From assembly GCA_031422995.1 (NCBI GenBank), contig JANPEP010000008.1, positions 1-63,893 of the forward strand: DNA of 63,893 nucleotides, in the 5' to 3' direction. Within the stretch, counting starts at the first letter, position 1; every line of letters starts with the position of its first letter. The stretch is from Polymorphobacter sp. (lineage in GTDB: Bacteria > Pseudomonadota > Alphaproteobacteria > Sphingomonadales > Sphingomonadaceae). Position numbers and translations under genes: made by a program. The notes under the pieces are model-generated. The model was not told the DNA's origin. It searched no databases and saw only the letters and a program-made list of their open reading frames with translations. Positions 11,076-51,583 of the stretch are shown piece after piece.

Positions 11076-11182
11076 GCACGGGCAAAGCCCGTGCCGACGT
11101 CAGACGGGTTCGCCCGGCATAGCCGGCCGCCCCGCTGGCCGCGCTTCTGCCTGTCGGCACGTAGCTACGCTGCGCGCTCGCG
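11076..11182 (-). repeat. Structured 3'-end repeat (family B) copy 1
   Basis: Shares GGCTTTGCC hairpin, GAACYCGTCYGAC and GCCRGCG(R)GGCGG cores with four other copies; abuts SDR stop. Confidence 0.8.
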
Positions 11183-11959
11183 TCAGTGCGCGGTATACCC
11201 CCCATCCACCACCATCTCACCCCCCGTCATGAAACTCGCCTCATCCGATGCCAGGAACAGCACCGCATCGGCAATCTCGCGCGGCACGCCGAACCGCCCC
11301 ATCGCGTGCGCCGCGATCAACGCATCGCGCATCTCGTTGCCATTCTCCGCCGCCATCAACGCGCCCGCCACCATCGGCGTATCGATAAACCCCGGATGCA
11401 CCGAATTGACCCGTATCCCCAGCGGCGCCCACTCCAGCGCCGCCGCCTTGGTCAACATCAACACCCCGCCCTTTGACGCGCAATAGGCCGCCGCATTCGG
11501 CAACCCCACCTTCCCCAAAATCGACGACAGGTTGATGATCGATCCACCCCCGCCCGCCGCCATCACCGGGCCGCAATGCCGCATCCCCAGGAACACGCCG
11601 TCGAGATTGATCGACAGGATCCGCCGCCAATCCTCCAGCGTGTGCGTCATCAAATCGAGCTGGCCTCCCGCCACCCCGGCGTTGTTGACCAGCACATCCA
11701 GCTTGCCGAAACGTTCGACCGCGGTCTCCACCGCCGCCACCCATTCGCTCTCCACCGTCACATCATGCCGCAAAAACCGCGCCCGGCCCCCCGCGGCCAC
11801 AATCGACAGCGCCACCGCCTCCCCCGCCGCATCACGATCGGTCAGCATGACCGCCGCGCCCTCCGCAGCCAGCCGCCGCGCCGTCTCCGCCCCCAACCCC
11901 ATCGCTGCGCCGGTAACCAGCGCCACCTTGCCTTGCACCCGTCCCGATCGGTTGGTCAT
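11183..11959 (-). CDS. Short-chain dehydrogenase/reductase
   Basis: TGAAMGLG, NNAG, YCASK, VNSVHPG. Confidence 0.93.
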   Translation of the reverse strand: MTNRSGRVQGKVALVTGAAMGLGAETARRLAAEGAAVMLTDRDAAGEAVALSIVAAGGRARFLRHDVTVESEWVAAVETAVERFGKLDVLVNNAGVAGGQLDLMTHTLEDWRRILSINLDGVFLGMRHCGPVMAAGGGGSIINLSSILGKVGLPNAAAYCASKGGVLMLTKAAALEWAPLGIRVNSVHPGFIDTPMVAGALMAAENGNEMRDALIAAHAMGRFGVPREIADAVLFLASDEASFMTGGEMVVDGGYTAH

Positions 11960-12018
11960 CTTAACCCCCTGTCAGTCGTCTTTTGCGGCAGCATAAAGCG
12001 AGACCAAGCCACAAAAAA

Positions 12019-12084
12019 CCCCTCTCCCGCTTGCGCTCGTGCACCGTCGCGGATGCGATCTCCGTCGCGCGCGGCGGGAGAGGG
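12019..12084. repeat. Family A element with expanded loop
   Basis: ccctctcccgc...gcgggagaggg terminal stem. Confidence 0.65.
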
Positions 12085-12124
12085 TGTAACCGAACATGGG
12101 CCTTGAGGACCGAAAGCGCGCAAT

Positions 12125-12147
12125 AAAAAACCCGGGCAAAGCCCGGG
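12125..12147 (-). terminator. Rho-independent terminator of tonB-exbB-exbD-exbD
   Basis: Minus strand cccgggc-ttt-gcccggg followed by TTTTTT; hairpin is the end of family B copy 2. Confidence 0.75.
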
Positions 12148-12260
12148 CGTAGCTTGCCCCGGAAAGAGCCGGGGTCAGACGAGTTCGGCTGGCCATATGC
12201 CAGCCGCCTCGCTGGCGAACCTCTTGAAAGTCTGAGCGCAGCTATGCTGCGCCCAGCCGC
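12131..12260 (-). repeat. Structured 3'-end repeat (family B) copy 2
   Basis: gtcagacgagttcg / ccgcctcgctggc cores, gcgcagc-tat-gctgcgc hairpin; just after exbD stop. Confidence 0.75.
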
Positions 12261-12263
12261 ACT

Positions 12264-12683
12264 TCAGTTCGCATAGGCCTCATTGCCCACAAAGCCCATC
12301 TTGGTGATCCCGGCCTGCTGGGCCGCAGCCATCACCTTGTCGACAACTTCATATTTGGCCAGGCCTTCGGGACGCAGCCGCAGTTCGGGCTGGCTCGGCA
12401 TGTCTGCCGCCTGCTTCATGTACGAGCGCAGCGTCGCCTGATCGACTTCGACCTTGTTCCAATAAATGTTGGACAGAAAATCGATATCGACCTGGTTGAA
12501 CACCGGATCGACATTGGTCGGCTGGTTGGCATTGACCGGCAGATCCAGCTTCACGGCATGGGTCTGCGGCGGAATGGTGATAATGAACATGATCAGCAAC
12601 ACGAGCATGACGTCGATCAACGGCGTCGTGTTCATGTCGGTCATCGGCGCGCCGTCGCTGCTGTCGCTCATCGCCATCGACAT
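12264..12683 (-). CDS. exbD: ExbD/TolR family biopolymer transport protein
   Basis: MNTTPLIDVMLVLLIMFII. Confidence 0.92.
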   Translation of the reverse strand: MSMAMSDSSDGAPMTDMNTTPLIDVMLVLLIMFIITIPPQTHAVKLDLPVNANQPTNVDPVFNQVDIDFLSNIYWNKVEVDQATLRSYMKQAADMPSQPELRLRPEGLAKYEVVDKVMAAAQQAGITKMGFVGNEAYAN

Positions 12684-12732
12684 GGCATTACTCCTTCAAT
12701 TCCTGCAGGGCGGCATCAAGCCGCCCTGGATA

Positions 12733-13206
12733 TTACCGCGTAACTTCGCCGGCGACGGGGTTCGAAATGAACCCGATCTTCAGAAACCCGGCGCGCTGCA
12801 TGGTATAGATAACCCCGCCAACACACCGATATTCCATATCCTTGTCACCGCGGATATGAACCTCGGGCAACTCGATCTTGCCGCCCTTGGCTTCCTGCCG
12901 TGCGATCTCGTCCTTCAACGCCTTGACGCCGCGATCAAGCAGTTCCTGCTTCGTATCGACCCTGGTCTGACCCCAATAGACATCGCAATTGGCATCGACC
13001 GAGATCAACACGTTCTCGGGCTTGGTCGTCGTCGCCAGGTTCGTCACCGTCGGCAACCTGAGCGCCACGGTCTGGATCACGACGGGAACGGTGATGAGAA
13101 AGATGATGAGCAGAACCAACATGACGTCGACCAGCGGCGTCGTGTTGATCTCGGTCATCGGGCTTTCGCTACCGTCCTCTTCCGGCGATCCGATGTTCAT
13201 CGACAT
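12733..13206 (-). CDS. exbD: ExbD/TolR family biopolymer transport protein
   Basis: INTTPLVDVMLVLLIIFLI, IRGD. Confidence 0.92.
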   Translation of the reverse strand: MSMNIGSPEEDGSESPMTEINTTPLVDVMLVLLIIFLITVPVVIQTVALRLPTVTNLATTTKPENVLISVDANCDVYWGQTRVDTKQELLDRGVKALKDEIARQEAKGGKIELPEVHIRGDKDMEYRCVGGVIYTMQRAGFLKIGFISNPVAGEVTR

Positions 13207-13243
13207 GAGTCAGATGCCCTTTTCTTGGCTGCGTGCCGAACGT

Positions 13244-13969
13244 TCAGCGCGCAACCGGCTTCGGAGCAACGGCGGCCGGTGGCATCGAAGGCGTCACAAC
13301 CCGCGAACCCGAAACCAGCGCACCATGAACATCGGCAGAGAAGTTGTTGAGCTTCTCGGACACATCCTTGTTGCGGCGGATGAGCCAGTTATAGCCAAGC
13401 ACGGCCGGAACGGCGACGGCCAGACCAAGCGCGGTCATGATCAAGGCTTCACCCACCGGGCCAGCGACCTTGTCGATCGAAGCCTGACCGGCCAGACCAA
13501 TGTTGATCAGCGCGCGATAGATACCGACAACCGTCCCGAACAGACCGATGAACGGCGACGTCGAACCGACCGAAGCGAGGAACGAAAGGCCGCCCTGAAG
13601 CTTCGAGGCGACACCGTTGGTCGAACGGTTCAACGCCATCGTCACCCACTCATGCTGGTCGATCTTGTCGGTCAACCGGCCTTCGTGATGGTCCGAAGCG
13701 CGCAGGCCGTCATCAACGATCTGCTTGAACGGCGAGTTCTTGTCGAGCTTGGACGCACCCGTCTTCAGATCAGGCGCCGACCAGAATTTCTTCTCCAACG
13801 TCGCCGCTTCCGTCAGCACCTTCCGCTGGTCGATGTACTTGGTGATGATGATGTACCACGACACCAGCGACATGAAGACCAGGATCCCGAACACCGACTG
13901 GGCAATGATGCCGCCCTGCTCAAGCGCGGCCGCCAGGCCATAGGGATTTTCGACTGCGACGGTTTCCAT
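13244..13969 (-). CDS. exbB: MotA/TolQ/ExbB proton channel protein
   Basis: SPFIGLFGTVVGI, GEALIMTALGLAVAVPA; ATG 13969 after GAGGGA. Confidence 0.92.
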   Translation of the reverse strand: METVAVENPYGLAAALEQGGIIAQSVFGILVFMSLVSWYIIITKYIDQRKVLTEAATLEKKFWSAPDLKTGASKLDKNSPFKQIVDDGLRASDHHEGRLTDKIDQHEWVTMALNRSTNGVASKLQGGLSFLASVGSTSPFIGLFGTVVGIYRALINIGLAGQASIDKVAGPVGEALIMTALGLAVAVPAVLGYNWLIRRNKDVSEKLNNFSADVHGALVSGSRVVTPSMPPAAVAPKPVAR

Positions 13970-14050
13970 TGTAAAATTCCCTCGATTTTTCGTTATGTTC
14001 AATTGGTTGACTGGTCCACAGCGAGGCGCGCTGGCCCCGCCGCAGCCGGA

Positions 14051-14698
14051 TTAGCGAGCGTCCTTCAACTGCCAGCGGACTGGCTGTGACTTGGTTTCCT
14101 GCACGGGCACCCCATCACGCGTCGCCGGGTTGAAGCGGAAACGGCGCATGATGATCTTGCACGTCGCATCGTCCAGCCGCGGCGAACCGCTCGATGACGT
14201 CACGTTGCAGCTTGAAACCTTGCCATCCACATCAATGACAAAGCTGACACGAGCGACGCCCTGCTCCTCGGCGCGCCGCGACGCGTCGGGATAATCGTCT
14301 TCGCTGATGCTGTTGCCTCGGCCCCTGGGCGTGGCCGCAGTCGGCGCCTTCACGGCGGCCGGTGGCGCCGGCGGCGCCGGTGGTGTGAACACCGGAGGTG
14401 CCGTGACCGGAACCTGCTGCTGCACCGTGATCGTCGGCGCGGCTTCGGACTGCACCGAAACCTCCGGCGGCGGCACGAACGGCGGAATCTCGATGTCCTT
14501 GGGCGGCGGCGGCGGCGGTTCTTCCGGCGGCGGCACGTCTTCCTTGACGTTGACTGTTTCCAGCGGCGCAACGATCGCCTTGACGGCTTTCAATGCGAGG
14601 CCGGTGATGAAAGCGTAACCGAGCAGGATATGCAGCAAGGCAACAAGGCCCAGCGCAATCATGCGGTTTTTGCTCATCCCCTGATCAGCGTATGCCAT
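14051..14698 (-). CDS. tonB: Energy transducer TonB
   Basis: N-terminal TM with His, Pro-rich linker, YP..RRAEEQG, SSG...LD C-terminal domain. Confidence 0.92.
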   Translation of the reverse strand: MAYADQGMSKNRMIALGLVALLHILLGYAFITGLALKAVKAIVAPLETVNVKEDVPPPEEPPPPPPKDIEIPPFVPPPEVSVQSEAAPTITVQQQVPVTAPPVFTPPAPPAPPAAVKAPTAATPRGRGNSISEDDYPDASRRAEEQGVARVSFVIDVDGKVSSCNVTSSSGSPRLDDATCKIIMRRFRFNPATRDGVPVQETKSQPVRWQLKDAR

Positions 14699-15026
14699 GA
14701 GCGCTGCAGAACTCCTGTAAAAGCGAAAAGCCCGAAATCAAAAATTCATGGATTGCCGCGGGCATCAAATACCCTCAGCGCTCCCTCTCCGTTCCTGTCT
14801 TAACCGCAACCCGTGCAACGCCGCAACCGCTTTGTGACGAGAAAGGGGCAAGTCTGCATCAAAGCATATCATCGCGGTAATCTTACAATTCGGGCTTCCC
14901 CGGCGCATCAACCCGATTGTCCAGCCCCCTCATATGGTTACTTTCCATCCATTACGCACCTGTGACGAAACATCGGCACGCCAGCGCCCGTTGCAGCAGA
15001 CCGGTCTCGCGCCTAAAACATTCACC

Positions 15027-15833
15027 ATGTTCATGCCCCGAATCCCGCGCGCCCTGGCCTTTCTGGCGACCGCCACGGCCTTCCTGCTGGCCGCACCATC
15101 CGCCGCTGCGGCGCTGTCGTACGCCGATCTCGCAGACCTTACCCTTGCCGCGCCCGTCATCGCCCGCGCCACCATCACCAACAGCGAGCGCATCGCCGAC
15201 AAGGACAGCCCCGGCCTTGCCCCCGGCCACGCCCGCCTGCTGCTCACCGCCGCCGTCGATGCGGCCCTTGTGGCACCCGGTACCATTCCTGCCTCGCTCA
15301 GCTGGCTGTGGGACGCGCCGCTCGATGGCCGCAACAAGGCCCCAAAGCCAAAGGGCCAAACCATCCTCGCCTGGCTCGCCGCACCCGCGGCCGATGGCAA
15401 GACCCGCCTCATCGCCGCATCGGCGCAACAACCCTGGGACGCCGCCACCGAAGCCCGCGTCCGCACCATCGCTGTCGAGGCGCGCGGCAGCATGGCCCCC
15501 GCCATTACCGGCGTCGCCAACGGCTTTCGCGCCGATGGCACCGTCCCCGGCGAAAGCGAAAGCCAGTTCTTCCTCAACAGCGCCGGAAGCGCTGCCAACG
15601 TAACTATGATCGTCACCACAAAACCCGGCGAGGCCCGGCGCGTCGCCGTCGCCCGCGGCGATGTCATTGATGAATCAGCAACAACCGTGAAGCCCGGCAC
15701 GCTGCTGCACTATCGCCTGGCCTGCTTCCTGCCGGCGAAACTGCCCGAAGCTGCCGGCGGCGCCGATCCGGCCCTTGCCGCGGATTGGGCCGCCGCCCTC
15801 GCCAGCCTCGGCCCCTGCGGCCGCACCAAATAG
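15027..15833 (+). CDS. Exported hypothetical protein
   Basis: Signal peptide, SYADLADL start of mature part, host-like codon usage. Confidence 0.7.
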   Translation: MFMPRIPRALAFLATATAFLLAAPSAAAALSYADLADLTLAAPVIARATITNSERIADKDSPGLAPGHARLLLTAAVDAALVAPGTIPASLSWLWDAPLDGRNKAPKPKGQTILAWLAAPAADGKTRLIAASAQQPWDAATEARVRTIAVEARGSMAPAITGVANGFRADGTVPGESESQFFLNSAGSAANVTMIVTTKPGEARRVAVARGDVIDESATTVKPGTLLHYRLACFLPAKLPEAAGGADPALAADWAAALASLGPCGRTK

Positions 15834-15882
15834 CGCGAGTCCGACCTGCGGGACGCACCGGGGCAGCGAAATCTCGCTGGCC

Positions 15883-16296
15883 CTAAAAGCTCGAAATCTC
15901 CACGCCCACAGCGGCACAATCCGGATAGATATCGGGCTTGCGCGTCGAAACCCGCACGGCCTCCACGCCCTGCCGTGCCGCTACCAGCGCATAAACCTCA
16001 TGCGCCACGGTTTCCTGCAAATTGAACCGCCGGCCCGCCACCAGCGCCAGAACGGCGGTGCGCAACACGTCATAATCCCATGCCGCCGCCACGCTGTCGC
16101 ACTGCGGAAACGCCGATTCGGCCAGCCACACTTCGATGTTCAGCCGCAGCCGCTGCGGCGTCCCGATCTCGAAATCATGAAAGCCGATGTCCACCGGCAA
16201 ATCGAAATCCTCCAGCATGATCTTGCGCGTCTTTGGCGCCAACGCCAGCGGCACCAACCCACTAAGGATCGGGTGGCGAATCAAGTCATCGATCAT
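15883..16296 (-). CDS. folB: Dihydroneopterin aldolase
   Basis: IGFHDFE..PQRL, WDYD, FNLQET, KPDIYPDCAAVGVE. Confidence 0.88.
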   Translation of the reverse strand: MIDDLIRHPILSGLVPLALAPKTRKIMLEDFDLPVDIGFHDFEIGTPQRLRLNIEVWLAESAFPQCDSVAAAWDYDVLRTAVLALVAGRRFNLQETVAHEVYALVAARQGVEAVRVSTRKPDIYPDCAAVGVEISSF

Positions 16297-17051
16297 TGCG
16301 TCTTCACCATATAAGCCACGTCGCGAGACAGCCCCATCAGCCGTTGCCCGCCATCCAGAACGATCGTCTGGGCATTGAACGTCGGCGTGGCAATAATGAA
16401 CCGCAACGCCGCTACAATCTCATCCACCGCGACACCACGCCGCAGCGGATTCAGGCCATGCACCGCCTCGAAATTCTCGCGGCTCTGTGGCCCGCTCACC
16501 AATGTCACCGCCGGCGCAATCCCCGCACAGCGCAGCCGCGGCGCATAGGCCCGCGCCGTCAATTCGGTCAGCCCCTCGAGGCCGATCTTGCTCAATGTAT
16601 AGGTAAAATAGTCCGGGTTCAGCCATTCTAGCTTGGCATCGAGCATATTGACCACCAACGACGTTGCATCCGCCGGCACGGCTTCGGCAAACGCCCGCGT
16701 CAACAACGCCGGCGCCCGCAAATTCACCGCCATATGGGCATCGAATTCGGCAACCTCGAAATCCGCAATTCCGTCATAAACGAATCGCGACGCCGAATTG
16801 ACCAGCAACCCCAGCGGCGGCAACCCCTTGGCCGCCCCGACAATCCGCGCCCCCGCATCGGCACCGGCCAGGTCGGCCACCACCACAGTGGCGGTCCCGA
16901 CCTCCGCAGCCAACGCCTCGGCCTCATCCCGCGACGTGTTGCAATGGACAACCACGTGCCAGCCATCCGCCGCCAAAGCCCGCACGATCGCCGCACCGAT
17001 GCGCTTTGCACCACCGGTCACAATTGCTGTCTGATGCCGCGATCCTGTCAT
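16293..17051 (-). CDS. SDR, pteridine reductase-like
   Basis: TGGAKRIG, YTLSK; overlaps folB start. Confidence 0.88.
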   Translation of the reverse strand: MTGSRHQTAIVTGGAKRIGAAIVRALAADGWHVVVHCNTSRDEAEALAAEVGTATVVVADLAGADAGARIVGAAKGLPPLGLLVNSASRFVYDGIADFEVAEFDAHMAVNLRAPALLTRAFAEAVPADATSLVVNMLDAKLEWLNPDYFTYTLSKIGLEGLTELTARAYAPRLRCAGIAPAVTLVSGPQSRENFEAVHGLNPLRRGVAVDEIVAALRFIIATPTFNAQTIVLDGGQRLMGLSRDVAYMVKTQ

Positions 17052-17154
17052 TCCCGCCGCCCTAGCCTCCTTCGCCCCTTCCTATCAAGCCGAGCCGCCG
17101 CCGCAGGCAGCGCCGCAATTGCCCTTCCCCGCCCGCCCCCCTAAATCGGCGCCA

Positions 17155-19074: not shown

Positions 19075-19078
19075 CCTG

Positions 19079-19115
19079 CCCCCCTCCCGCCGACAGGAGG
19101 GACCGGGGGTGGGGG
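19079..19115. repeat. Family A element
   Basis: ccctcc...ggagggaccgggggtggggg. Confidence 0.6.
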
Positions 19116-19145
19116 ATACACGCACTTTCCGCTATAAGCGCCCCC

Positions 19146-19520: not shown

Positions 19521-19552
19521 AGCCCAAGCCGCCGGATCGTCGGCAATCGCGC

Positions 19553-22588: not shown

Positions 22589-22594
22589 ACAAAA

Positions 22595-27796: not shown

Positions 27797-28179
27797 TCAG
27801 AGGATCGGGCGATCGCCGCTGCGTCAGCAGGGGAGGAAAGTCCGGGCTCCACGGAACGCGGTGCCGGGTAACACCCGGCGAGGGTGACCTCAGGGAAAGT
27901 GCCACAGAGAGCAGACCGCCGATGGGCTCCTTTCGGGGAGAGACAGGCAAGGGTGAAAGGGTGCGGTAAAAGCGCACCGCGCGATGGGCAACCAAAGCGG
28001 CATGGCAAACCCCACCGGGAGCAAGACCGAATAGGGACGGCACGGACCTTCGGGTCCAGGGCAGGAACCGGCCCCGCCGTCCGGGTTGGTTGCTTGAGGC
28101 GCCGGGCAACCGGCGTCCTAGAGGAATGATCGTCCAGAAGTTTCGGCTTCAGACAGAACCCGGCTTACAGATCCTCTGA
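27797..28179 (+). ncRNA. rnpB: RNase P RNA, class A
   Basis: GAGGAAAGTCCGGGCT, GAAAGTGCCACAGA, AGACAGAACCCGGCTTA; terminal tcagaggatc/gatcctctga helix. Confidence 0.97.
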
Positions 28180-28180
28180 T

Positions 28181-28295
28181 CGCAGCGCGGCCAGCGCGCA
28201 GCGCAGCAGCGCGCGGAGTCGCGCAAGATCGGCCAGCGAGGCGGACAGCTTCGCTGGCCGAACTCGTCTGACGTCAGCATGGGCTTTGCCCATGC
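28181..28295 (+). repeat. Structured 3'-end repeat (family B) copy 3
   Basis: ggccagcgaggcgg...gaactcgtctgac...gcatgggctttgcccatgc directly after rnpB. Confidence 0.8.
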
Positions 28296-28315: not shown

Positions 28316-28391
28316 CTCCCTCCCCCCTGTGGGGAGGGCGACTCGCGCCGTTGACCTCCGGTCGCCTACGGCTGCGCGAGCGGGGTGGGGG
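28316..28391. repeat. Family A element with expanded loop
   Basis: Same ends as 25904-25955, loop replaced by a longer internal hairpin. Confidence 0.75.
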
Positions 28392-28430: not shown

Positions 28431-28542
28431 GCGCGGGCAAAGCCCACGCCGTCGGACGGGTTCGGCGCGCTTCGCCCGCGCCGCCCCGCCGGCCGAGCTT
28501 GCGCGAGTCCGCGCAGCTACGCTGCGCGCGGCCGCGGCTGCG
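28431..28542 (-). repeat. Structured 3'-end repeat (family B) copy 4
   Basis: gggcaaagccc, gtcggacgggttcg, ccgccccgccggccgagcttg, gcgcagctacgctgcgc; overlaps stop of the TPR gene. Confidence 0.8.
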
Positions 28543-30334
28543 CATCAAACGCCACCGTCAACCTTTCCGCCTCACTCTCAAACCCCGTCGTCCCATGCCA
28601 GAAATACGACGGAAACAGCACCAGCCGCCCCGCCGCCGGCACCACCACCCGCCTTGCCTCCAGCGTCAGCCCCAGCGCCGCCTCCGGCACCCCGAACGCC
28701 AGCGCCCCGCCCGTCCCCGCCGCCACCTCCGCCGGCACCCCGATATACAGCGCCGAACTCATCCACCCCTCCGGATGCACGTGGCTGACATGGAATCCCT
28801 GCTCCTTCAACCGCACCGACCATGATCCGGCCAGCGCAATCCGCCCGGTGTTGCGCCCCAGAAACGGATGCCCGGCATCACGCGGCAACCCGGCAATCGC
28901 TGCCTCCACCGTCGCCACCACAGCGTCCTGCAACGCCCGCACCACCGGGTCAACGCTGTCGAACAACCGCCCACGCGTCTGCGTGCCCCCCCGCAACGAT
29001 TGCTCCGCCGGCGCCGCCAGCGTCACGTGCATCCGCGTCAACACCGGCGCCAGATCATCCAGAAACCCGCGCAAGTCGCTCCACCCAGCCGGCACCACCA
29101 GGTCCTGCACCATCACCAGCCGGTCATAATCCGCCAGCCATGCCTCCCGCGCATCGCCCATCAACCGCCAGATGATCGTCAACAGCGCCCAGGGGGATTG
29201 CGCCATCGGTGCCAACCGCGTCGCCGCCAGCGCACACGCTTCGGCCCGCGCCAGATCGCCCGTCTGCAAGAACAGGTGCGCCAGGTGATTCTGCACCCCC
29301 AGACTCTGCTGGTCCGCCGCCAACGCCGCCGCAATCGCTGCCGGTGCATCTCCCATCACCGTCAACGCCGCAATCCGCGCCATCGTCCAGTCGCCATGCG
29401 GACCATGCGCGACCTCGGCTGCGGCCGCCCATTCCAGCATCGCCGCCGCATCACCCACCGCCCGCGCCGTGCCGATTGCCGCCACCCACACCGCGCGATC
29501 CATCGGCCTTTGCAACGCCTGCCGATACCCGGCCAAGGCTTCGGCCCCGCGCCCGATCTGCGGCAACAGCAACGCCAGCGCATCCTGCGCCTCCACATAC
29601 CCCGGCGTGGCCGCAATCACCGCCCGATATTGCGCCACCGCCTCGTCAAACCGCCCCAACTCCGCCAGCACCGCCGCCCGCGTCGAACCCGTCTCGGGCG
29701 CCGTCAAACCATCGCGCATCGCCTGCTCAAACGCCGCCAGCGCCGCCTCGGGCTCGCCAATCATCCGCAGCCCCGTCGCCAGATTATGCCGCGCCCGCAA
29801 ATCCCGCGGGTTGATCGCCAACACCCGCCGCCACGCCGCCACCGCCGCTACCGGCTGCCCACGTTGCTGCTCCAGAAACGCCAATGCACTCCACGCCCGG
29901 GCGTCCTTGGGTGCCAACGCCGTGGCCCGCCCCGCCGCCATCTCGGCAACGTCCCAATCCGCATCCCTGGCCGCGCCCAGAGCCAGATTGATCCACGCCT
30001 CCACATGCCCCGGCGCCGCCGCAACGGCCTTGCGCAGCGCCGCCATCGATCCGGCGGCATCCCCCATCGCGCCCAACAGATTGGCGTAACTGTTCCAGAT
30101 CCCGGCATTGCCCGGCGCCGCCGCCAATGCTGACTCATACAAGGACCGCGCTTCATCCCGCCGCCCCTGCAATTCTGCCGCAATCGCCCGCAAATACAGC
30201 GCGTCCGGGTGCGCACGCGCCGCCATCGACAAGCTGCGCAGCGCCTGTTCCGCACCTGCCCCGGCACCCGATTGCAATAACCCCAGCGCCCGCTGCAACA
30301 CCGCCATGTCGGCGGCTGCCAACCCCGCGATCAC
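28517..30334 (-). CDS. TPR-repeat protein fused to putative 2OG-Fe(II) oxygenase
   Basis: Multiple TPR-like helices, QSLRGGTQT, HVSHVHPEGW, FPSYFWHGT, RLTVAFD; GTG start overlapping upstream stop (ATG 30307 is an alternative). Confidence 0.85.
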   Translation of the reverse strand: MIAGLAAADMAVLQRALGLLQSGAGAGAEQALRSLSMAARAHPDALYLRAIAAELQGRRDEARSLYESALAAAPGNAGIWNSYANLLGAMGDAAGSMAALRKAVAAAPGHVEAWINLALGAARDADWDVAEMAAGRATALAPKDARAWSALAFLEQQRGQPVAAVAAWRRVLAINPRDLRARHNLATGLRMIGEPEAALAAFEQAMRDGLTAPETGSTRAAVLAELGRFDEAVAQYRAVIAATPGYVEAQDALALLLPQIGRGAEALAGYRQALQRPMDRAVWVAAIGTARAVGDAAAMLEWAAAAEVAHGPHGDWTMARIAALTVMGDAPAAIAAALAADQQSLGVQNHLAHLFLQTGDLARAEACALAATRLAPMAQSPWALLTIIWRLMGDAREAWLADYDRLVMVQDLVVPAGWSDLRGFLDDLAPVLTRMHVTLAAPAEQSLRGGTQTRGRLFDSVDPVVRALQDAVVATVEAAIAGLPRDAGHPFLGRNTGRIALAGSWSVRLKEQGFHVSHVHPEGWMSSALYIGVPAEVAAGTGGALAFGVPEAALGLTLEARRVVVPAAGRLVLFPSYFWHGTTGFESEAERLTVAFDAQPRPRAA

Positions 30335-30828
30335 CCGCCCGGCCACGGCCGCCAGGCCGCCCGTTCCGCCTCCAGCACCGCCAGCCGCTCGGCACCAAAC
30401 CCTCGGCCCAATTGCGCCGCCAAATCTTCTGCCGCCTTCGCCGTGCCATTGCCGCCACCGGCCGCCAGCTTCGCCCAAACCCAGGCCCTGCCGGTATCGG
30501 CCCGCACGCCATGCCCGCCGGCCAATGCCTTGGCCAATGCCAGCTGCGCCGGTGCATAGCCGCGGTTCGCCGCCCGTAACCACCATCCAACCGCCGCCGC
30601 GCCATCGGCGCCGCCACCCAAGCCCTTGGCGGCCATTACCCCCATCAGTGTTTCCGCAATCGCCGAACCGCGATCCGCCACCGGCCGCAACTTGGCCCGC
30701 GCCGCCGCATAATCCCCCGCTGCATAGGCCGAAAGCCCGGCTTCCAGCGCCGCAGCCGCGCTTTCCACGGCAACAGCCGGGCTCGCAATCAACCCCGCAG
30801 CAAATCCCGCCACTATCCGCCGCATCAT
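30331..30828 (-). CDS. Sel1-repeat exported protein
   Basis: Signal peptide, WWLRAANRGYAPAQLAL...GHGV. Confidence 0.82.
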   Translation of the reverse strand: MMRRIVAGFAAGLIASPAVAVESAAAALEAGLSAYAAGDYAAARAKLRPVADRGSAIAETLMGVMAAKGLGGGADGAAAVGWWLRAANRGYAPAQLALAKALAGGHGVRADTGRAWVWAKLAAGGGNGTAKAAEDLAAQLGRGFGAERLAVLEAERAAWRPWPGG

Positions 30829-40064: not shown

Positions 40065-40073
40065 GGCCTGAAA

Positions 40074-42823: not shown

Positions 42824-42886
42824 CACCACTTGCACCCACCGCCACTTCAGGCAAAAATCACATCACCACGACTGGAAGGCAAACCC

Positions 42887-43642: not shown

Positions 43643-43672
43643 CTGGCACCATACCGCCGAACACCCCCCGCA

Positions 43673-44614: not shown

Positions 44615-44685
44615 CCCCGGTCCCTCGATTTCGCGCCAATTCTAATCGCTTGCGGCTGCGCGAACGTCCATTTCAGGTCAATCGC

Positions 44686-46473
44686 TCAACCGGTGAATTC
44701 CTTTGCCTGCCAGTTCTCGCAAAACAGCTCCAGTGCCTGCACCTTCATCGGCACGGCAACCTTGTATCCCTGCACCGAATCACACCCCGCCAACCGCGTC
44801 GCCTCCAATTGCGCCTCGTCCTCCACGCCTTCGGCCACCACCGTCAGCCCCAATTGCTTGGACAATCGCACCACGGTCTCCACCACCACCCGCTCACGCG
44901 GCGCGCCCGTTAGGCCCAGGGTGAAACTCCGGTCCAGCTTGATCGAATCAATCGGCAGTCGCGCCATCCACGCCAGCGACGAATATCCCGTGCCAAAATC
45001 ATCCAGCGCGATCTTCACCCCGCTGGCCCGCAGCCCCGACAACAGATGCACCGCGCCGCGCATATCCTCGATCAACGCGCCTTCGGTCACCTCCAGCGTC
45101 AACCGGTGCCGCGCCAACCCCGAATCAAGCAACGCTGCCTCCAGTGCCGCGACAAAGCCGGGGTCTGCCAGGTCCGCCGGCGTCACATTTAGACTCAACT
45201 TCAACCGCGCCAACGCCCCGGTCCATTGCGCCGCGTTCATCATCGCCCGCGCCCGGATATGCCGGCCCAGCTTGATCGCCATCTCCGCCGATGCCGCGGT
45301 TTCCAGCAACGTCTCCGCCGGCAACAGCCCCAACTCGGGATGCTCCCACCGCACAAGCGCCTCAACCGCCACAATCCGCCCGGTGACCAGCGACAGCTGC
45401 GGCTGAAAAACCAGCGATATGTCCCCATTTTCAATGGCATCATGCAAGTCGGATTCCAGGTCCGCCATCCGCGTCAACGGGTCGCCGCCGGGCTCGGCCT
45501 GGAACACTTCCACCGTGCCCGCATCGCCCGCCCGCGCCGATGCCAGCGCCGAACTCGCCCGGCGAATCAACGCCGCCGCATCATCCTCGGGCTCTCCCGG
45601 CGCCTCATCATTGCTCGCGGCAATCCCCACCCGGCCTGACAAGTGGATGACATGGTCGTCCACCACGAACGGCCGCTCGAACGCCTGCCCCAATCCATGC
45701 GCCAGCCGCGTCGCATCGCCCAGCATCACTGGCCCGGCCATCGCGACGCCAAACTCCGCCGCCGCCAGCCGCGACAACAGCCGCGCCTCTGCCAGGGAGC
45801 TTCCCGGGCTGCGGGCATCGACAATCTGGCTCAACCGTATCGCCACCGCGCTCAACACCCGGTCCGCCACCGCCCGGCCATACGCCGCGTTGATCTGCGC
45901 AAACCGCCCCACCCCAACTGCCAGCACAAACACCGGCTGCGGCCGTTCCGGCACCGCCAGCAACATGGTGATCCACTGCTGCAACTGGTCACCCGTCGCC
46001 AGCCCGGTCAGCGAATCATGCCGGCCGCGTTCGCTCCCGGCCTCGCCGTCGCCATTCTCCAGCAATGCCGCCGCCGCATCGGCCAGCCGCCGCGCGTGCC
46101 GCGCCGTCAATCGCAACGCATTGCCAAATGCCGCGCTGCCGAACGGACTGACCAGCACGCCCGTCGCCCCGGCATCATGCGCCGCGCCGGTCGCCGCCGA
46201 ATCCGAACGCGACAACAGCACCAGCATCGCCCCGCGGCGCAATTCCACGGCCTTGCCCAAGGATCGCGCCACCACCAGCCCCTGCGCCAGCGCGCCGCGC
46301 GCATCCACCACCACCAGCCGCGCCGGCTCCGCCTCAAACCGCTCATCGGCCTTTTCGGAACGCCGCTCGATGCGCGGCACCATGCCCGTCACCGCAACCG
46401 CCGCCGCCACTTCATCGGCATAGCGCGGCGACACGATCAACACCGGTTCCGCCGCAATCGAGGCCATTGTCAT
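44686..46473 (-). CDS. Receiver-like + degenerate GGDEF + EAL protein (probable c-di-GMP phosphodiesterase)
   Basis: HDSLTGL, AAAEF in place of GGDEF, EAL, DDFGTGYSS, EGVE, QGY. Confidence 0.88.
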   Translation of the reverse strand: MTMASIAAEPVLIVSPRYADEVAAAVAVTGMVPRIERRSEKADERFEAEPARLVVVDARGALAQGLVVARSLGKAVELRRGAMLVLLSRSDSAATGAAHDAGATGVLVSPFGSAAFGNALRLTARHARRLADAAAALLENGDGEAGSERGRHDSLTGLATGDQLQQWITMLLAVPERPQPVFVLAVGVGRFAQINAAYGRAVADRVLSAVAIRLSQIVDARSPGSSLAEARLLSRLAAAEFGVAMAGPVMLGDATRLAHGLGQAFERPFVVDDHVIHLSGRVGIAASNDEAPGEPEDDAAALIRRASSALASARAGDAGTVEVFQAEPGGDPLTRMADLESDLHDAIENGDISLVFQPQLSLVTGRIVAVEALVRWEHPELGLLPAETLLETAASAEMAIKLGRHIRARAMMNAAQWTGALARLKLSLNVTPADLADPGFVAALEAALLDSGLARHRLTLEVTEGALIEDMRGAVHLLSGLRASGVKIALDDFGTGYSSLAWMARLPIDSIKLDRSFTLGLTGAPRERVVVETVVRLSKQLGLTVVAEGVEDEAQLEATRLAGCDSVQGYKVAVPMKVQALELFCENWQAKEFTG

Positions 46474-46668
46474 CCCTTTGTGGCCGTTGGCACCGTCTCT
46501 CAACACGTCTTACCAATTCCTGGGACCAATTCTTAAGCATCGTAAACCGTCTGCGCCAGTGACTTCGCCACCAATATGCGCCCAAACGCGCCCAATCCGG
46601 CGCAATCCCCGCCTCTCACCTCTGCGGGCTGGACTTCACCGGCCCGCATCGCCACCTTGCACGGCACA

Positions 46669-47706
46669 ATGCATCTCGCCCCCCTCCTTGATCGCCCTGC
46701 GGCGCCGGCATCGCCGCTCGTCGATCCTTTCGGCCGCGCCATCTCCTATCTGCGCGTCTCGGTCACCGATCGCTGCGATTTCCGCTGCGTCTATTGCATG
46801 CCCGAAAACATGGTCTTCCTGCCCAAGGCCGAAGTGCTCAGCCTCGAAGAAATTGATCGTCTCGCCACTGCCTTCATCCATCGCGGCACCCGCAAGCTCC
46901 GCCTCACCGGTGGCGAGCCGCTGGTCCGCCGCGGCATCATCGATCTCGTCACCTCGCTCGGCCGCCACCTCAAATCCGGCGCCCTCGATGAACTCACCCT
47001 CACCAGCAACGGCTCGCAACTGGCGCGCTTCGCTGCCGATCTGCACGCCGCCGGCGTCCGCCGCGTCAACGTCAGCCTCGATACGCTCGACCCGGCAAAG
47101 TTCACCGAGATCACCCGCTGGGGGCGCCTGCCACAAGTGCTCGAAGGCATCGCCGCCGCCAGCGCCGCCGGCCTCCACATCAAACTCAACATGGTGGCGC
47201 TCGCCGGCGTCAACGATGCCGAAGTCGAAGCCATGCTGGCCTTCGCGGCGCACGGCGGCCATGATCTGGTGCTCATCGAAACCATGCCGCTTGGCGAAAT
47301 CGGCGTCGATCGCGTCGATCACTATTTGCCGCTCTCCCGTGTCCGCGCCGATCTCGCAACCCGCTGGACCCTGCACGATCTGCCCGACAATACCGGCGGC
47401 CCCGCCCGCTATGTCCGCATCGGCGAAACCGGCCAACGCCTCGGCTTCATCACCCCCCTCACCCATAATTTCTGCGAAAGCTGCAATCGCGTCCGCCTCA
47501 CCGCCACTGGCCAGCTCTACATGTGCCTCGGCCAGGATGATGTCGCCGATCTGCGCTCGGTCATCCGTTCGTCCCCAGACGACGTCGCGCTCCATGCCGC
47601 CCTCGATGAAGCCATCAGCCGCAAACCCAAGGGCCATGATTTTGTCATCGATCGGCGCGCCGCCGCTCCCGCCGTGCGTCGCCACATGAGCGTCACCGGT
47701 GGATAA
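46669..47706 (+). CDS. moaA: GTP 3',8-cyclase
   Basis: CDFRCVYC radical SAM motif, CESCNR, C-terminal MSVTGG. Confidence 0.96.
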
Positions 47707-48487
47707 TTCACCCGCGCCTGATCCCAAACTCGCGCTCCTCGTCTCCGACACCGAAGCCGCAGAAGCTGGCGGAGAGGCTCTTCGCGCGCGCTACAACTTC
47801 GTCCCGGTCCGCGATGCCGATATCGTCGTCGCCCTCGGCGGTGATGGCTTCCTGCTCCACACCCTCCACGAAGCTCTGTCGGCCAGCGACCCGAAACCGA
47901 TGTTCGGCATGAACCTCGGCACCGTCGGCTTCATGATGAACGAATTCATCGAAGACGATCTGCTCGCCCGCATCACCGCTGCCCGGGCCTTCACCCTCCA
48001 CCCGCTGCTGATGACCGCCGAAACCGTCCGCGGCGAAATCATCACCTCACCGGCCATCAACGAAGTCTCGCTGCTGCGCGAAACCCGCCAGACGGCCAAG
48101 ATCGAAATCGCCATCGATGGCCAGGTTCGCATGGAGGAACTCATCTGCGACGGCGTCCTCGTCGCCACCCCCGCCGGCTCCACCGCCTACAACCTCTCCG
48201 CCAACGGCCCCATATTGCCCCTGCAATCGGACCTGCTCGCCCTCACGCCCATCAGCCCGTTTCGCCCCCGGCGCTGGCGCGGCGCCCTCCTGCCCCAGGC
48301 CAGCGTCATCGAATTCCGCGTCCGCGAGGCCAGCAAGCGCCCCGTGTCTGCCGTCGCCGATCAACGCGAAGTTCGCGATGTCGCCTGCGTCCGTGTCGTC
48401 ACCGACAAATCGATCCGCCTGCAGCTGCTCTTCGACCCAGGCTATGCGCTGGATGATCGCATCGTCCTCGAACAATTCGCGAGTTGA
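47699..48487 (+). CDS. nadK: NAD kinase
   Basis: [18 protein letters not shown]. Confidence 0.93.
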
Positions 48488-48508
48488 TGGCCGGCGGCGC
48501 ATAACCAC

Positions 48509-48537
48509 TTGCCCCTCGCCAATCCCCCCGCTATAGC
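48509..48537 (+). promoter_or_regulatory. Putative sigma70 promoter for tRNA-Asn
   Basis: TTGCCC-N17-TATAGC upstream of the tRNA. Confidence 0.5.
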
Positions 48538-48554
48538 CCCCCACCTTGCCCTGT

Positions 48555-48629
48555 TCCGCGGTAGCTCAGTGGTAGAGCAGACGACTGTTAATCGTCTGGT
48601 CGTAGGTTCGAATCCTACCCGCGGAGCCA
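48555..48629 (+). tRNA. tRNA-Asn (GTT)
   Basis: Cloverleaf TCCGCGG/CCGCGGA, anticodon loop CTGTTAA, GGTTCGAATCC, encoded CCA. Confidence 0.97.
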
Positions 48630-48733
48630 TTCCCTCACCAATCGCCAGCGCATTGGTCGGCCCGGCAAAACCATTCACCCCTGCGACAGCGATACGCTTG
48701 TAAAGACTTCGGCAACCACAAAGGGTCGCCGCC

Positions 48734-49906
48734 ATGAAACCTGTCCGCCTGCTCCCCCTCGCTACCCTGCTGCTCGCCGGCGGCTGCACCCTTGATTATG
48801 CCGATGGCTATGCCCCCAACTACCCCGCCGGCTATGACTCCGGCATGGGCAGCGGCCAATTCAACCAACCGGGTGATCAATTCGGTGGCCAGGACGTCGC
48901 TTCGATCGACGTCTTCCTCGCCCCGCTCACCCAATATGGCCGCTGGACCGACAGCCGCTATGGCCGCGCCTTCCTGCCCAATGCCCCGCAAGGCTGGCGC
49001 CCCTATGTCAACGGCCGCTGGGGCGAAAACCGCCTGTGGATCAGCGATGATCCCTGGGGCTGGGCCACCGACCACTACGGCCGCTGGGGCCATGATGATC
49101 GCATCGGCTGGGTCTGGGTGCCCGGCACCGAATGGGCACCCTCCTGGGTCGCCTGGCGGGAGGACGAGCAACAGGATGTCGCCGGCTGGGCCCCCATCCC
49201 GCCGGGAATCGCCTATTCGGTGGGCGTCGGCTTCGGCACCGGCTTCGGCAGCCCCTGGGGCTATGACAATTACAACAGCTGGTACGGCCCCAGCTGGGTC
49301 TGGGTGCCCCGCGGCAACATCTATCGCCCCGGCTTCGGTGGCGGCACCCTGCCTTGGCAAGGCGGCAACAATTATTGGCGCGGCAGCCATTGGAACCACA
49401 ATGGCGGCTACAATCGCGGCCATAACGGCAACAACAACGCCTGGAACAACAATGGTCGCCCAGGCGGTGGCCGTCCCAACGGTGGTCGCCCCAACGATGG
49501 CCGCCCCTACACTCCCCGCCCGGGCGTCGGCGAGGCCATCGGCGGCAGCATCGCGGGCCTTCCGCCACGCGGGCGTCCCGGCGGCGCCTATCAAGGCAAC
49601 AACCGTCCTTCCGGGCAATATCAAGGGACGGACGGACAGTATCAGGGTCGCCCCTCGGGGCAATATCAGGGCACCGGCACATCGCGTCCGCCGCGCAATA
49701 CCGATGGCGGCACCAGCCTTGGCGAATCCATCGGCGGCAACATGGCCCGGCCGCCGGCGCAGCAGACGTCCAACCGTCCGGCACAGCCTGCGTATAACCC
49801 ACCGCAACAGGCCTATAACGCCCCGACGCCACGCGCCGAACGCCCCGAACCACCCCAACGCCAATCCCCGGCAACACCGGAACGCAGCGACGAAAGGCCT
49901 CAGTAA
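48734..49906 (+). CDS. Putative lipoprotein with DUF6600-like Trp/Gly-rich domain and disordered Gly/Arg/Pro/Gln tail
   Basis: Signal ending LLAGGC; L..YGRW, WRPY.NGRW, PWGWATDHYGRW, WVPGTEWAPSWVAWR. Confidence 0.8.
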   Translation: MKPVRLLPLATLLLAGGCTLDYADGYAPNYPAGYDSGMGSGQFNQPGDQFGGQDVASIDVFLAPLTQYGRWTDSRYGRAFLPNAPQGWRPYVNGRWGENRLWISDDPWGWATDHYGRWGHDDRIGWVWVPGTEWAPSWVAWREDEQQDVAGWAPIPPGIAYSVGVGFGTGFGSPWGYDNYNSWYGPSWVWVPRGNIYRPGFGGGTLPWQGGNNYWRGSHWNHNGGYNRGHNGNNNAWNNNGRPGGGRPNGGRPNDGRPYTPRPGVGEAIGGSIAGLPPRGRPGGAYQGNNRPSGQYQGTDGQYQGRPSGQYQGTGTSRPPRNTDGGTSLGESIGGNMARPPAQQTSNRPAQPAYNPPQQAYNAPTPRAERPEPPQRQSPATPERSDERPQ

Positions 49907-50024
49907 CCGCGGCAAATCCGCGACAATCTGGCAACAATCACGTCCGTCATGGCCTTGATGCCACAATAAACTTGCGCTTTTCGCGGCGCTGCACACTATC
50001 GGATTTCAGTGTGCGGGAGCAGCA

Positions 50025-51470
50025 ATGGCGGCAATCACGGCCTTTGACGAAATGTACGGCTTCGGCGCTGCCACCGAAGGCGCCGCCGTAACCGGCGCTT
50101 ATCGCTCGCTGCAAAACTGGCTCGATCACTCCCCACCCGAACTCATGGCCGCAAGGCGCCGTCAGGCCGAGCTGTTCTTCCGCCGCATCGGCATCACCTT
50201 TGCCGTCTATGGTGATCCCGATGCCGCTGAACGCCTGATCCCCTTCGACATCGTCCCCCGCATCCTCGCCCGCGCCGAATGGGACGGGCTGGAGGCCGGC
50301 CTCAAGCAACGCGTCCGCGCCCTCAACGCCTTTCTCGCCGATGTCTATGGCGCCCGCGACATCCTGCGTGCCAACATCCTGCCCGAAGAACTCGTCCTCC
50401 AGAATCCGGGCTATTGCCTGCACATGGCCGGCAAAAAACCCCCCGGCGGCGTCTGGACCCACATCGCCGGCATCGATCTCGTCCGCACCAGCCCCAATGA
50501 ATTCTACGTACTGGAGGACAACGCCCGTACCCCGTCCGGCGTCTCCTACATGCTCGAAAATCGCGAGGTGATGCTCAAACTCGTTCCCGAGCTCTTCGAC
50601 CAGGTCAAGGTCGCCCCCGTCGAAACCTATCCCGAAGCGCTGCTTGAAACCCTCGCCTCGGTCAGCCCGCGCCGCAGCCGCAACGGCAGCGCACCGGTTT
50701 GCGTCCTCCTCACCCCCGGCCGCCACAACAGCGCCTTTTACGAACACAGCTTCCTCGCCGACAAACTCGGCATCGAACTTGTCGAAGGCTCGGACCTCTT
50801 CGTCCGCGACGACATCGTCTACATGCGCACCACCGAAGGGCCTGAGCGTGTCGACGTTATCTACCGCCGCCTCGACGATGCCTTCATCGATCCGCTGGTC
50901 TTCAACCCCTCATCGATGCTTGGCGTCCCCGGCCTCATGGCCGCCTATGGCGCCGGCAATGTCACGCTCGCCAACGCTGTCGGCACCGGCGTCGCCGATG
51001 ACAAGGCAATCTACAGCTACATGCCGGAAATCATTCGCTTCTACACCGGCGAGGAACCCATCCTCAACAACGTCCCGACTTGGCGCTGCCGTGAACCCGA
51101 TGCACTCGGCTATGTCCTCGATCACCTCGCCGAACTCGTCGTAAAGGAAGTCGATGGCTCGGGTGGCTATGGCATGCTCATCGGCCCCCACGCCCCACAA
51201 GCCACTCTCGCCGCTTTCGCTGCCAAGCTGAAGGCCCACCCCGAAAAATTCATCGCCCAACCCACGCTGGCGCTCAGCACCTGCCCCACCGCCACCGACG
51301 CCGGCATCGCCCCCCGCCACGTCGACCTCCGCCCCTTCGTGCTGACGGGGGCGCATGACGTGAAAATCGTCCCCGGCGGCCTCACCCGCGTCGCCATGAC
51401 ACCCGGGTCGCTGGTGGTAAATTCGAGCCAGGGCGGCGGCACCAAAGACACATGGGTGGTCGATGATTAG
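50025..51470 (+). CDS. Circularly permuted type 2 ATP-grasp protein
   Basis: GITFAVY, LEDNARTPSGVSY, VIYRRLDD, VVNSSQGGGTKDTWV. Confidence 0.93.
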   Translation: MAAITAFDEMYGFGAATEGAAVTGAYRSLQNWLDHSPPELMAARRRQAELFFRRIGITFAVYGDPDAAERLIPFDIVPRILARAEWDGLEAGLKQRVRALNAFLADVYGARDILRANILPEELVLQNPGYCLHMAGKKPPGGVWTHIAGIDLVRTSPNEFYVLEDNARTPSGVSYMLENREVMLKLVPELFDQVKVAPVETYPEALLETLASVSPRRSRNGSAPVCVLLTPGRHNSAFYEHSFLADKLGIELVEGSDLFVRDDIVYMRTTEGPERVDVIYRRLDDAFIDPLVFNPSSMLGVPGLMAAYGAGNVTLANAVGTGVADDKAIYSYMPEIIRFYTGEEPILNNVPTWRCREPDALGYVLDHLAELVVKEVDGSGGYGMLIGPHAPQATLAAFAAKLKAHPEKFIAQPTLALSTCPTATDAGIAPRHVDLRPFVLTGAHDVKIVPGGLTRVAMTPGSLVVNSSQGGGTKDTWVVDD

Positions 51471-51583
51471 CGCCGCGCCGCGAGCGCGCGCACCGCGCGC
51501 CGACAGGCGCAAGCTCGGCCGGCGGGGCGGCGCGCGCTCCTGCGCGCTGAACCCGTCCGACGTCACGACGCGGCTTTGCCGCG
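51471..51583 (+). repeat. Structured 3'-end repeat (family B) copy 5
   Basis: gcaagctcggccggcggggcgg...gaacccgtccgac...cgcggctttgccgcg immediately after the stop. Confidence 0.8.

Follow-up and report, generated by a model that had tools for sequence, protein, structure and literature searches.

What kind of sequence would come to stand, in one orientation, directly behind the ends of unrelated genes? The question is raised by a stretch of 63,893 nucleotides from Polymorphobacter sp. (Sphingomonadaceae; assembly GCA_031422995.1, contig JANPEP010000008.1, forward strand), hereafter the window, in which an earlier note had described five copies of a structured element, here called Family B, and had read them as a mobile terminator or single-stranded DNA (ssDNA) element. 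A survey of the source genome and its relatives shows Family B to be an uncatalogued, polar, three-hairpin repeat of ~125 nt, present in about fifty copies in this genome and resembling repetitive extragenic palindromes (REP) and bacterial interspersed mosaic elements (BIME). Among the explanations weighed below, we lean towards a non-autonomous REP/BIME-like element whose folded ssDNA is likely nicked in trans by a putative nuclease.

Genome survey and fold

The genome surveyed comprises 3.0 Mb in 322 contigs, with gene calls made by our own caller. A profile grown from the five window copies returned 53 genome matches, 52 of them at E<1e-3; the 53rd was a palindromic self-match. The pattern of paired cores occurred 20 times in this genome, as compared with 0 in 5 dinucleotide-shuffled genomes, and reversed-pattern controls gave 0 matches across 41 genomes.

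On the gene strand, the layout is a short GC-GNA-GC start, a first hairpin (H1), a linker, two further hairpins (H2 and H3), and a pyrimidine-rich tail, with a fourth hairpin present in some copies. The tip of H1 is variable, and its 3' arm holds GACTCG or GACAGG. H2 consists of GGCC-R-GCG-R-GG-CGG, a variable tip, and CCG-AA-C-Y-CG-T-C-Y-GAC, and H3 is closed by GGC-TTT-GCC, a hairpin motif present in 42/52 copies. An alignment of 51 genome copies contains two-sided changes in 14/22 pairs (140 cells, as compared with 42 after shuffling and 17–37 in slid controls); the copies are related, which inflates covariation, and the counts are therefore not a probability. This excess over both controls bears out the compensatory pairing of the cores that the earlier note had claimed, though not as a continuous stem. 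Strict parsing of the fold succeeded for 148 copies out of a pool of 192, and among these a bulged, unpaired T is conserved in 135, a G/AA loop in 119, and a C·A mismatch in 122. The first R-Y pair of the core is G-C in 90 parsed copies and A-T in 49; the second is G-C in 102 and A-T in 29. In a variant from the second clade of the genus (L165-L167), the paired bases have turned over and the G/AA loop and GGCC/GAC base are kept.

The gene strand carries the GC-GNA-GC motif 68 times, as compared with 18 for the opposite strand and ~4 expected. GNA triloops are stable in DNA. Of the two triloops to which the earlier note had appealed, GNA does lie on the gene strand; the AAA loop is on the opposite strand only. 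G·T wobbles show no gene-strand excess (24 on the gene strand vs 19 on the other in H2, and 12 vs 12 in H3), and RNA folding energy, better on the gene strand in 26/52 copies, does not separate the strands; DNA folding energy leans slightly to the gene strand (37/52 copies). The strand bias of GNA, the lack of a wobble excess, and the DNA polarity of the flanking skew described below favor the ssDNA half of the earlier reading, with the failure to find a mobilizing enzyme counting on the other side. Family B probably acts as DNA rather than RNA.

By rough typing, all combinations of H1 type and core type occur, such that the modules are mosaic, and most copies are <90% identical to their nearest neighbor copy. 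GANTC is present in 27/52 copies, where it falls within the 3' arm of H1; read on the opposite strand, the core begins with CGTC, its GTC paired into the stem. Three copies (C92:34291, C200:20235, and C105:14232) have an identical 13-nt, GANTC-bearing insertion inside the right core. The profile missed two truncated Family B remnants, at C121:5153-5285 and C92:29122-29226, one of which is fused to a DUF559-type repeat.

Taxonomic distribution

A covariance model of Family B found matches in 24/24 congeners, with 3 to at least 51 per genome, and in 29/150 genomes of the family (22/112 genera). The same model gave one weak match among 16 genomes of other families and 0 in a class-wide set of 150 other alphaproteobacterial genomes, one per family. 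Among the matches listed, named records with true copies are those of Sandarakinorhabdus glacialis, Polymorphobacter (P. arshaanensis included), Allosphingosinicella, and Sphingomonas; a loose pattern run on GTDB contigs gave mostly chance matches outside the sphingomonads, again among the matches listed. Viral contigs, phages, and plasmids returned 0 Family B matches. A gathering-threshold scan of Rfam identified only RNase P and tRNA in the window; nothing credible was found for copies 3 and 4 at E<=10, and 11 further loci returned only signal recognition particle RNA (E<=0.05). The earlier note had recognized no named family, and we likewise found no description of the element in the searched literature, which misses most subscription papers. 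Integron attC sites, IS91 ends, group II intron domain V, and self-cleaving ribozymes were dropped by inspection and on the Rfam negatives.

Position, stop codons, and termination

Forty-seven of the 50 copies with a called upstream gene share its orientation (p 4e-11); of these 47, 43 stand at a stop codon, 1 behind rnpB, 1 behind ffs, and 2 are unresolved. Co-orientation recurs in 94/114 copies from four other sets (congeners and three other genera) and in 88/104 from metagenome loci. The earlier statement that orientation is always that of the upstream gene is therefore true of the five window copies but not of the genome, in which reversed copies exist; most of these lie in operon gaps or ahead of gene starts. 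The host genes (39 scanned) are ordinary ones, including rho, rpoZ, infB, infC, rpsI, rpmG, glnA, pckA, TonB receptors, and dehydrogenases, and they show no enrichment for high codon adaptation (p 0.52, n=41).

Host genes differ from the genome in their stop codons: 19/43 of them end in TAG, as compared with 475/2528 genes across the genome (p 2e-4), and so do 20/23 filled vs 10/53 unfilled orthologs (p 3e-8). As regards the unpaired GTAG tag that GTAG-REPs have at one end, a G precedes the stop in 26/38 filled orthologs, with TAG common, but that G is part of the last codon of the host.

The pyrimidine tract claimed for the 3' end is present as a pyrimidine-rich tail, but rarely as a T run: at least 6 T in the first 8 nt behind H3 were found in 6/49 parsed copies. 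Tail T content showed no significant relation to operon context or to copy divergence. Window copy 5 and its in-operon orthologs have no pyrimidine tail, and old copies behind exbD retain H3 and a T run. The terminator half of the earlier reading is accordingly weak, given the few T runs and the lack of operon tracking, though it fits the decayed exbD copies. We read termination as a secondary, occasional use. The RNA runs consulted, assembled contigs from distant relatives, contained rnpB from other organisms and nothing else of relevance.

Site occupancy and mobility

Twenty-seven orthologous gaps behind an ATP-grasp gene were compared. Six hold a forward copy and 1 a partial one, 2 a reversed copy, 7 a DUF559-type repeat and 1 a partial one, and 1 some other sequence; 9 are empty. 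In the nearest clade, 23/76 orthologous ends of five genes are filled, and one congener has a tandem trimer with a period of about 143 nt. Sites that are empty in some relatives and filled in others, either way around or by other repeats, together with tandem copies, support the earlier view of a mobile, structure-conserved element, and we hold with high confidence that Family B is a mobile repeat.

Tandem junctions show a 2-nt overlap only, and the relatives are too diverged to resolve any target duplication. The 5' and 3' consensus ends are not complementary, leaving the element without terminal inverted repeats; for lack of these, a classical MITE (miniature inverted-repeat transposable element) of the Correia, RUP, or ERIC type was rejected. 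No convincing half-elements interrupted by a gene were found in the source genome, and no outward-facing copy pairs within 1.5 kb in six well-assembled genomes, as searched with a short pattern that detects no more than a share of the copies. At least two unrelated families of repeats have landed in the 4 nt that separate the ATP-grasp gene from the next one (window 50025-52552; L172-L198). At L276:1650-2529 (genome G063), with a toxin-antitoxin pair on one side and a DNA methyltransferase on the other, a copy is joined through its 5' end to an rpoD 3' fragment, midway along that fragment; this junction is possibly an element-mediated rearrangement or an assembly artefact.

A C-to-G halo in flanking genes

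Replichore skew in the source genome is very strong, with fourfold-site G at 0.56 in leading and 0.22 in lagging genes. Composition near copies was therefore measured as G/(G+C) at fourfold-degenerate sites, normalized per gene and then per codon family. The main pool comprised the source genome, congeners, and three other genera; relatives in these and in the ortholog comparisons are not statistically independent, and most controls come from the source genome alone. On this measure, G is enriched and C depleted, on either side of a copy, in the strand that points 3' towards it, whatever the orientation of the gene or the direction of the fork; the effect reaches about 200 nt on the upstream side and about 450 nt on the downstream side.

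Convergent downstream genes shift by +0.185 (n=24) vs +0.042 in control convergent gaps (n=70, p 5e-5), upstream-side genes pointing at the copy by +0.071 (n=82) vs +0.023 (p 2.5e-4), and co-oriented downstream genes by −0.088 (n=31) vs −0.009 (n=170, p 3e-4). This halo does not change sign between leading genes (+0.108) and lagging ones (+0.111). On the upstream side it holds in 35/40 tandem contexts and persists without the last 30 nt (+0.103, 61/79 positive, vs control +0.014). In other genomes with same-locus controls, 47/54 and 28/31 were positive, as compared with a control mean of +0.012 (n=178). Within the nearer clade, orthologs of rho, pckA, ETF-QO, ettA, and pmbA show higher values when filled than when unfilled in 5/5 genes (n=23 vs 52, p 7e-4). 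In the source genome, DUF559-type repeats mainly amplify the replichore skew of their neighbors (−0.07 lagging, +0.105 leading); Family B, by comparison, keeps its polarity on either replichore. Twofold-site A-to-G and C-to-T versions of the halo were not significant after normalization, and a raw A-to-G trend near copies was set aside as largely replichore and expression confounding. We are fairly confident that the halo is real and tied to Family B. No description of a repeat-centered mutation halo in bacteria was found in the searched literature, which was mostly open-access.

Orthologs from the source genome are often extreme in fourfold G (0.14-0.23, or 0.64), most congeners lying at 0.3-0.55. 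The extreme skew of this genome, in which one dnaE was found, possibly reflects a lost repair function. Its convergent control gaps commonly hold further uncatalogued repeats, for example of the GCCTCCGGCGG…GGGGCC type and GTGTCGACTT-containing units, which may account for part of the control skew.

The five window copies

All five copies lie in the sequence where the earlier note had placed them, with the strands and cores it gave, and its neighbors were recovered by Pfam (SDR, exbD, TPR/2OG-oxygenase, and ATP-grasp) and Rfam (RNase P). Copy 1 (11076..11190, minus strand) has an H1 of the GACAGG type, its left core at 11139-11127 and its terminal GGC-TTT-GCC loop at 11089-11081, and abuts the stop codon of an SDR oxidoreductase open reading frame (ORF; 11183..11959, minus strand); this site is empty in 5/5 congeners examined. 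Copy 2 (12131..12263, minus strand), behind exbD (12264..12683, minus strand), is diverged and includes an extra small hairpin, and its terminal hairpin is followed by a T6 run, terminator-like. The same site carries decayed copies with the terminal hairpin and T run in congeners G002 and G017 and a native terminator in 3 others.

Copy 3 (28181..28295, plus strand) begins at the 3' end of the RNase P class A RNA gene rnpB (27797..28183, plus strand), a site that in congeners is filled, variant, remnant, or empty. It faces copy 4 (28431..28543, minus strand), whose 5' hairpin supplies the TAG stop of a TPR/2OG-Fe(II) oxygenase ORF (28517..30586, minus strand). The C-terminus of this host has been rewritten by the copy, ending in …AFDA-QPRPRAA before the stop as against …DA-LPV and …DA-VPVV in two relatives, and its last 30-210 nt show a fourfold G shift of +0.12. 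Nested between the two facing copies is a DUF559-type G/C-run repeat unrelated to Family B (28316..28391, unstranded); repeats of this type (also L219, L220, L224, and L225) flank DUF559 nuclease genes in inverted orientation. Copy 5 (51471..51583, plus strand) occupies the operon gap between a circularly permuted ATP-grasp gene (50025..51470, plus strand; shift of +0.19 in the last 30-210 nt) and the next gene. GC skew across the window is about −0.2.

Candidate partner genes

The earlier note had proposed a search for a linked mobilizing gene. No transposase, reverse transcriptase partner, or dedicated nuclease was found near copies, and because no mobilizing enzyme emerged, the mechanism of mobilization is a putative one. 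Single HNH, MmcB-like, DUF2726, PIN, and Fic neighbors were rejected as none was recurrent. Close copy pairs in genomes G063 and G133 flank the rpoD fragment and a dihydropteroate-synthase-like gene (named from its translation), with no mobility enzyme.

The only enriched neighbor is an orphan helix-turn-helix protein with an RxDGWTP motif, similar to terminase small subunits (TerS-like): 9 distinct members occur among 473 copy-adjacent genes, vs 5 of about 2985 genes in the source genome, as counted with a profile built from 8 of those 9 neighbors. The protein matches PHROG 4044, phage terminase small subunit (E 1.6e-19). The Family B model matches beside the gene in 8/77 gene-centered loci, on both sides in 4, and in several non-syntenic contexts a reversed copy starts 0-15 nt past the conserved TGTAGGA(C/A)AG end of the gene. 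We treat this neighbor as a lead only. Orphan TerS-like genes (L632-L708; C175, C50, C174, C99), up to 8 per genome, have upstream a TCCTACA and then an AACC…GGTT palindrome, and this motif is often abutted by hairpin repeats from several families; the genes with their upstream motif may constitute a mobile unit or an insertion hotspot. At L202/L632 and L633 (genomes G008 and G017), a gene for SRAP, an abasic-site ssDNA protein, lies right behind the TerS-like gene, with a reversed copy ahead of each gene.

Proposed mechanism and alternatives

In the reading that we favor, the gene-strand hairpins would provide a recognition surface through their GNA triloops, bulged T, G/AA loop, and C·A mismatch. 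Nicks or breaks at a copy would then be processed 5' to 3', leaving the copy-pointing strand single-stranded on each side; cytosines of the exposed strand would be damaged and refilled as G, in short gaps with mutagenic refill. In yeast, bidirectional 5'-to-3' resection at double-strand breaks has as its signature the loss of C to the left and of G to the right of the site on the top strand, as given in the available text (PMC6786661). The halo has matching geometry, and we infer that the folded element is nicked or broken recurrently. The longer halo on the 3' side fits expectation if the gene strand is cut more often. The same nick-and-copy process might move and shuffle copies. Those surviving would be copies that landed immediately after a functional end, where the stop codon can be taken over by the 5' TAG and the last hairpin may be co-opted as a weak terminator, and reversed copies would persist mainly inside operons. 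That nicking and resection cause the halo appears to us an evenly balanced proposition. A more elaborate version, in which Family B, a clade-specific hairpin element lacking its own transposase, would be a programmed nicking site, bound by domesticated TerS-like proteins and cut by a nuclease recruited in trans, a self-spreading local mutator of core-gene ends from C to G, seems improbable.

Several observations weigh against the favored reading. ATP-grasp orthologs filled by DUF559-type repeats shift as much as those filled by Family B (+0.257 vs +0.251; empty +0.044), and filled and empty gaps at this site largely correspond to two clades, so that the contrast is clade-confounded. Control convergent gaps also shift, by +0.04 to +0.09. 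The ortholog test did not reach significance in the second clade (p 0.11), in which some filled sites had been wrongly classed, a direct count of C>G changes near filled sites was marginal (0.134 vs 0.092, p 0.06), and the halo is unrelated to copy divergence (correlation rho 0.21, p 0.27, n=31). Within the window, the copy 3/4 pair is the only place where the raw skew clearly flips. Enzymes are likewise wanting: a Y1 transposase (PF01797) was found in 0/5 genomes (its control matched in 6/14), a reverse transcriptase in 1/5, and Y2 in 0/5, though the Y2 control was also silent. No transposase occurs among the 181 scanned of 278 small or atypically placed neighbors (from 473 adjacent genes in other genomes). 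GIY-YIG and DUF559 genes have repeats of their own; the 5 small GIY-YIG loci inspected carry CGTC/TGTC repeats, not Family B. As for the refilling polymerase, ImuB and ImuC are described as yielding G:C-to-C:G changes in Caulobacter (PMC3901139, in the portion available), and a second dnaE (ImuC) is present in 4/4 other genomes but was not found in the source genome; for this reason ImuC as a required cause of the halo is unsupported (PMC3901139, PMC7198004, each as available).

An RNA role is the rival with the most in its favor. Family B could be a 3'-UTR terminator or stabilizer, or else an RNA motif bound by a protein, in each case propagated by gene conversion among its copies, with the skew arising from transcription (R-loops or antisense read-through) or from selection for C-rich Rho sites. 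The copies are strongly co-oriented with the upstream transcript, rnpB and ffs included; the hairpin with its pyrimidine tail, the old exbD copies that keep only the last hairpin and T run, the presence of reversed or tail-less copies inside operons, and the weaker skew of equal sign in control convergent gaps likewise agree with an RNA role. The transcribed strand, however, has no G·U wobble excess and no advantage in RNA folding energy, and a true T run is restricted to the 6/49 copies noted above. Moreover, neither non-template exposure nor rut selection would predict the inversion of the skew in co-oriented downstream genes or its presence on the upstream side in tandem contexts, both of which are observed. 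We consider this explanation unlikely. It is likewise doubtful, and rather more so, that Family B is an orphaned terminal structure or target of a TerS-like cassette, the protein of which would bind the hairpins and recruit, for example, a large terminase of a gene transfer agent (GTA) or phage. The sole enriched neighbor, its PHROG match, the copies beside the gene in 8/77 loci, and the reversed copies that abut its conserved end across non-syntenic contexts speak for such a link; yet 4 of the 8 copy-adjoining loci amount to a single syntenic locus, the motif is also abutted by other families of repeats, and Family B flanks none of the 5 source-genome homologs. In addition, neither Pfam nor PHROG shows a nuclease domain in the protein, and its Atlas neighbors are unnamed.

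There may, alternatively, be no dedicated enzyme at all, the repeat being spread by host hairpin processing and repair (SbcCD-like cleavage, fork or R-loop processing, or recombination) and the halo being a side effect common to many hairpin repeats. The failure to find a linked enzyme and the mosaic copies, mostly <90% identical to their nearest neighbor, would suit this proposal, as would the local skew disturbed by DUF559-type repeats. Generic palindrome correction would nonetheless erase mismatches and bulges, which are kept here even where paired bases have turned over, and the DUF559-type disturbance mainly amplifies replichore skew, as opposed to the polarity of Family B on both replichores; we give the proposal little credence. 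The idea that Family B is a diverged member of a described family, either the Caulobacter CIR repeats or the CGTC-REP/SRM repeats cut by Ssn nucleases, draws on a similar length, the intergenic location, GANTC in 27/52 copies, and the CGTC at the start of the opposite core strand. Against it, the SRM pattern occurs in 0/52 and 0/192 copies, the CGTC-REP layout of an 8-9 bp stem with a CCA tail is lacking, GANTC lies in a stem arm and is missing from about half of the copies, and 0/150 other alphaproteobacteria match, making membership very improbable.

The spread of REP-like repeats without a linked transposase is called an open question for CGTC repeats in the available text of PMC3733652. 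Family B offers a handle on it: the fold is defined and its bulges invariant, sites occur both empty and filled, and the codons alongside bear a footprint that can be measured. Should the halo be a record of repair, local repeat-centered mutators would be rewriting the ends of core genes (rho, pckA, ettA) independently of replication direction; codon-usage and selection analyses would be biased there, and composition alone could map recurrent exposure of ssDNA.

Comparison with known systems

The halo has the strand geometry of the 5'C-3'G single-switch mutation clusters of yeast, in which top-strand C is lost to the left and G to the right of a site. Those clusters, as set out in the available text (PMC6786661), are acute, kilobases long, APOBEC-driven C-to-T changes that were shown genetically in a eukaryote, whereas the halo of Family B is an evolutionary shift in composition over 200-450 nt, mainly at C/G fourfold sites, with its cause inferred. 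Flavo-1 (RF01705) is likewise structured and intergenic, occurs in many copies within a single clade, and has an inner hairpin that varies (PMC2864571, in part), but it belongs to another phylum, differs in sequence, and has no covariance-model match to Family B; its matches are reported, in the portion of PMC9723704 available, as indistinctly sense or antisense.

The CcrM-associated CIR1-4 repeats of Caulobacter share several features, being ~110 bp, intergenic, built of linker-joined arms without a terminal inverted repeat, and frequently bearing GANTC, according to the available review text (PMC2229807). That description places GANTC at or in a terminal loop, as opposed to the stem arm in Family B, which also has three hairpins, no TA termini seen, and no occurrence found outside one family. 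Two features taken from the review (PMC2229807, as available) speak against membership in CIR, the position of GANTC and presence across alphaproteobacteria (0/150).

The CGTC-REP/NTS/SRM repeats and their Ssn nucleases, small GIY-YIG proteins that cut ssDNA beside a tagged hairpin, supply the nearest model for cutting. Hairpin repeats of this kind are described as abundant in alphaproteobacteria (PMC11893778, in the text available), and small GIY-YIG genes exist in the genomes considered here. The SRM pattern, absent from Family B copies, has 39 matches elsewhere in the source genome; local GIY-YIG genes are flanked by CGTC/TGTC repeats, whereas the GTC of Family B is paired into a stem. By analogy, Family B probably works like Ssn-type cutting of folded ssDNA beside a hairpin, even though the SRM test fails.

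The GTAG-REP/RAYT system also offers a close likeness. Its repeats, in the available description (PMC3733652), are extragenic, cluster at 3' ends in tandem or convergent gene gaps, and have termini that often supply a TAG stop; they also occur face to face in pairs, in tandem arrays, and interspersed with other repeats as mosaics, and have imperfect stems. They differ in being single palindromes of 20-40 nt (PMC3733652), compared with the ~125 nt, three hairpins, and strong polarity to one gene of Family B. No Y1 transposase was found in the Family B genomes tested (0/5), and a halo goes unmentioned for REPs in that portion of the source (PMC3733652). On the features tested, Family B is not a GTAG-REP, a CGTC/SRM repeat, a classical MITE, or an Rfam family, and it works like a REP/BIME non-autonomous element.

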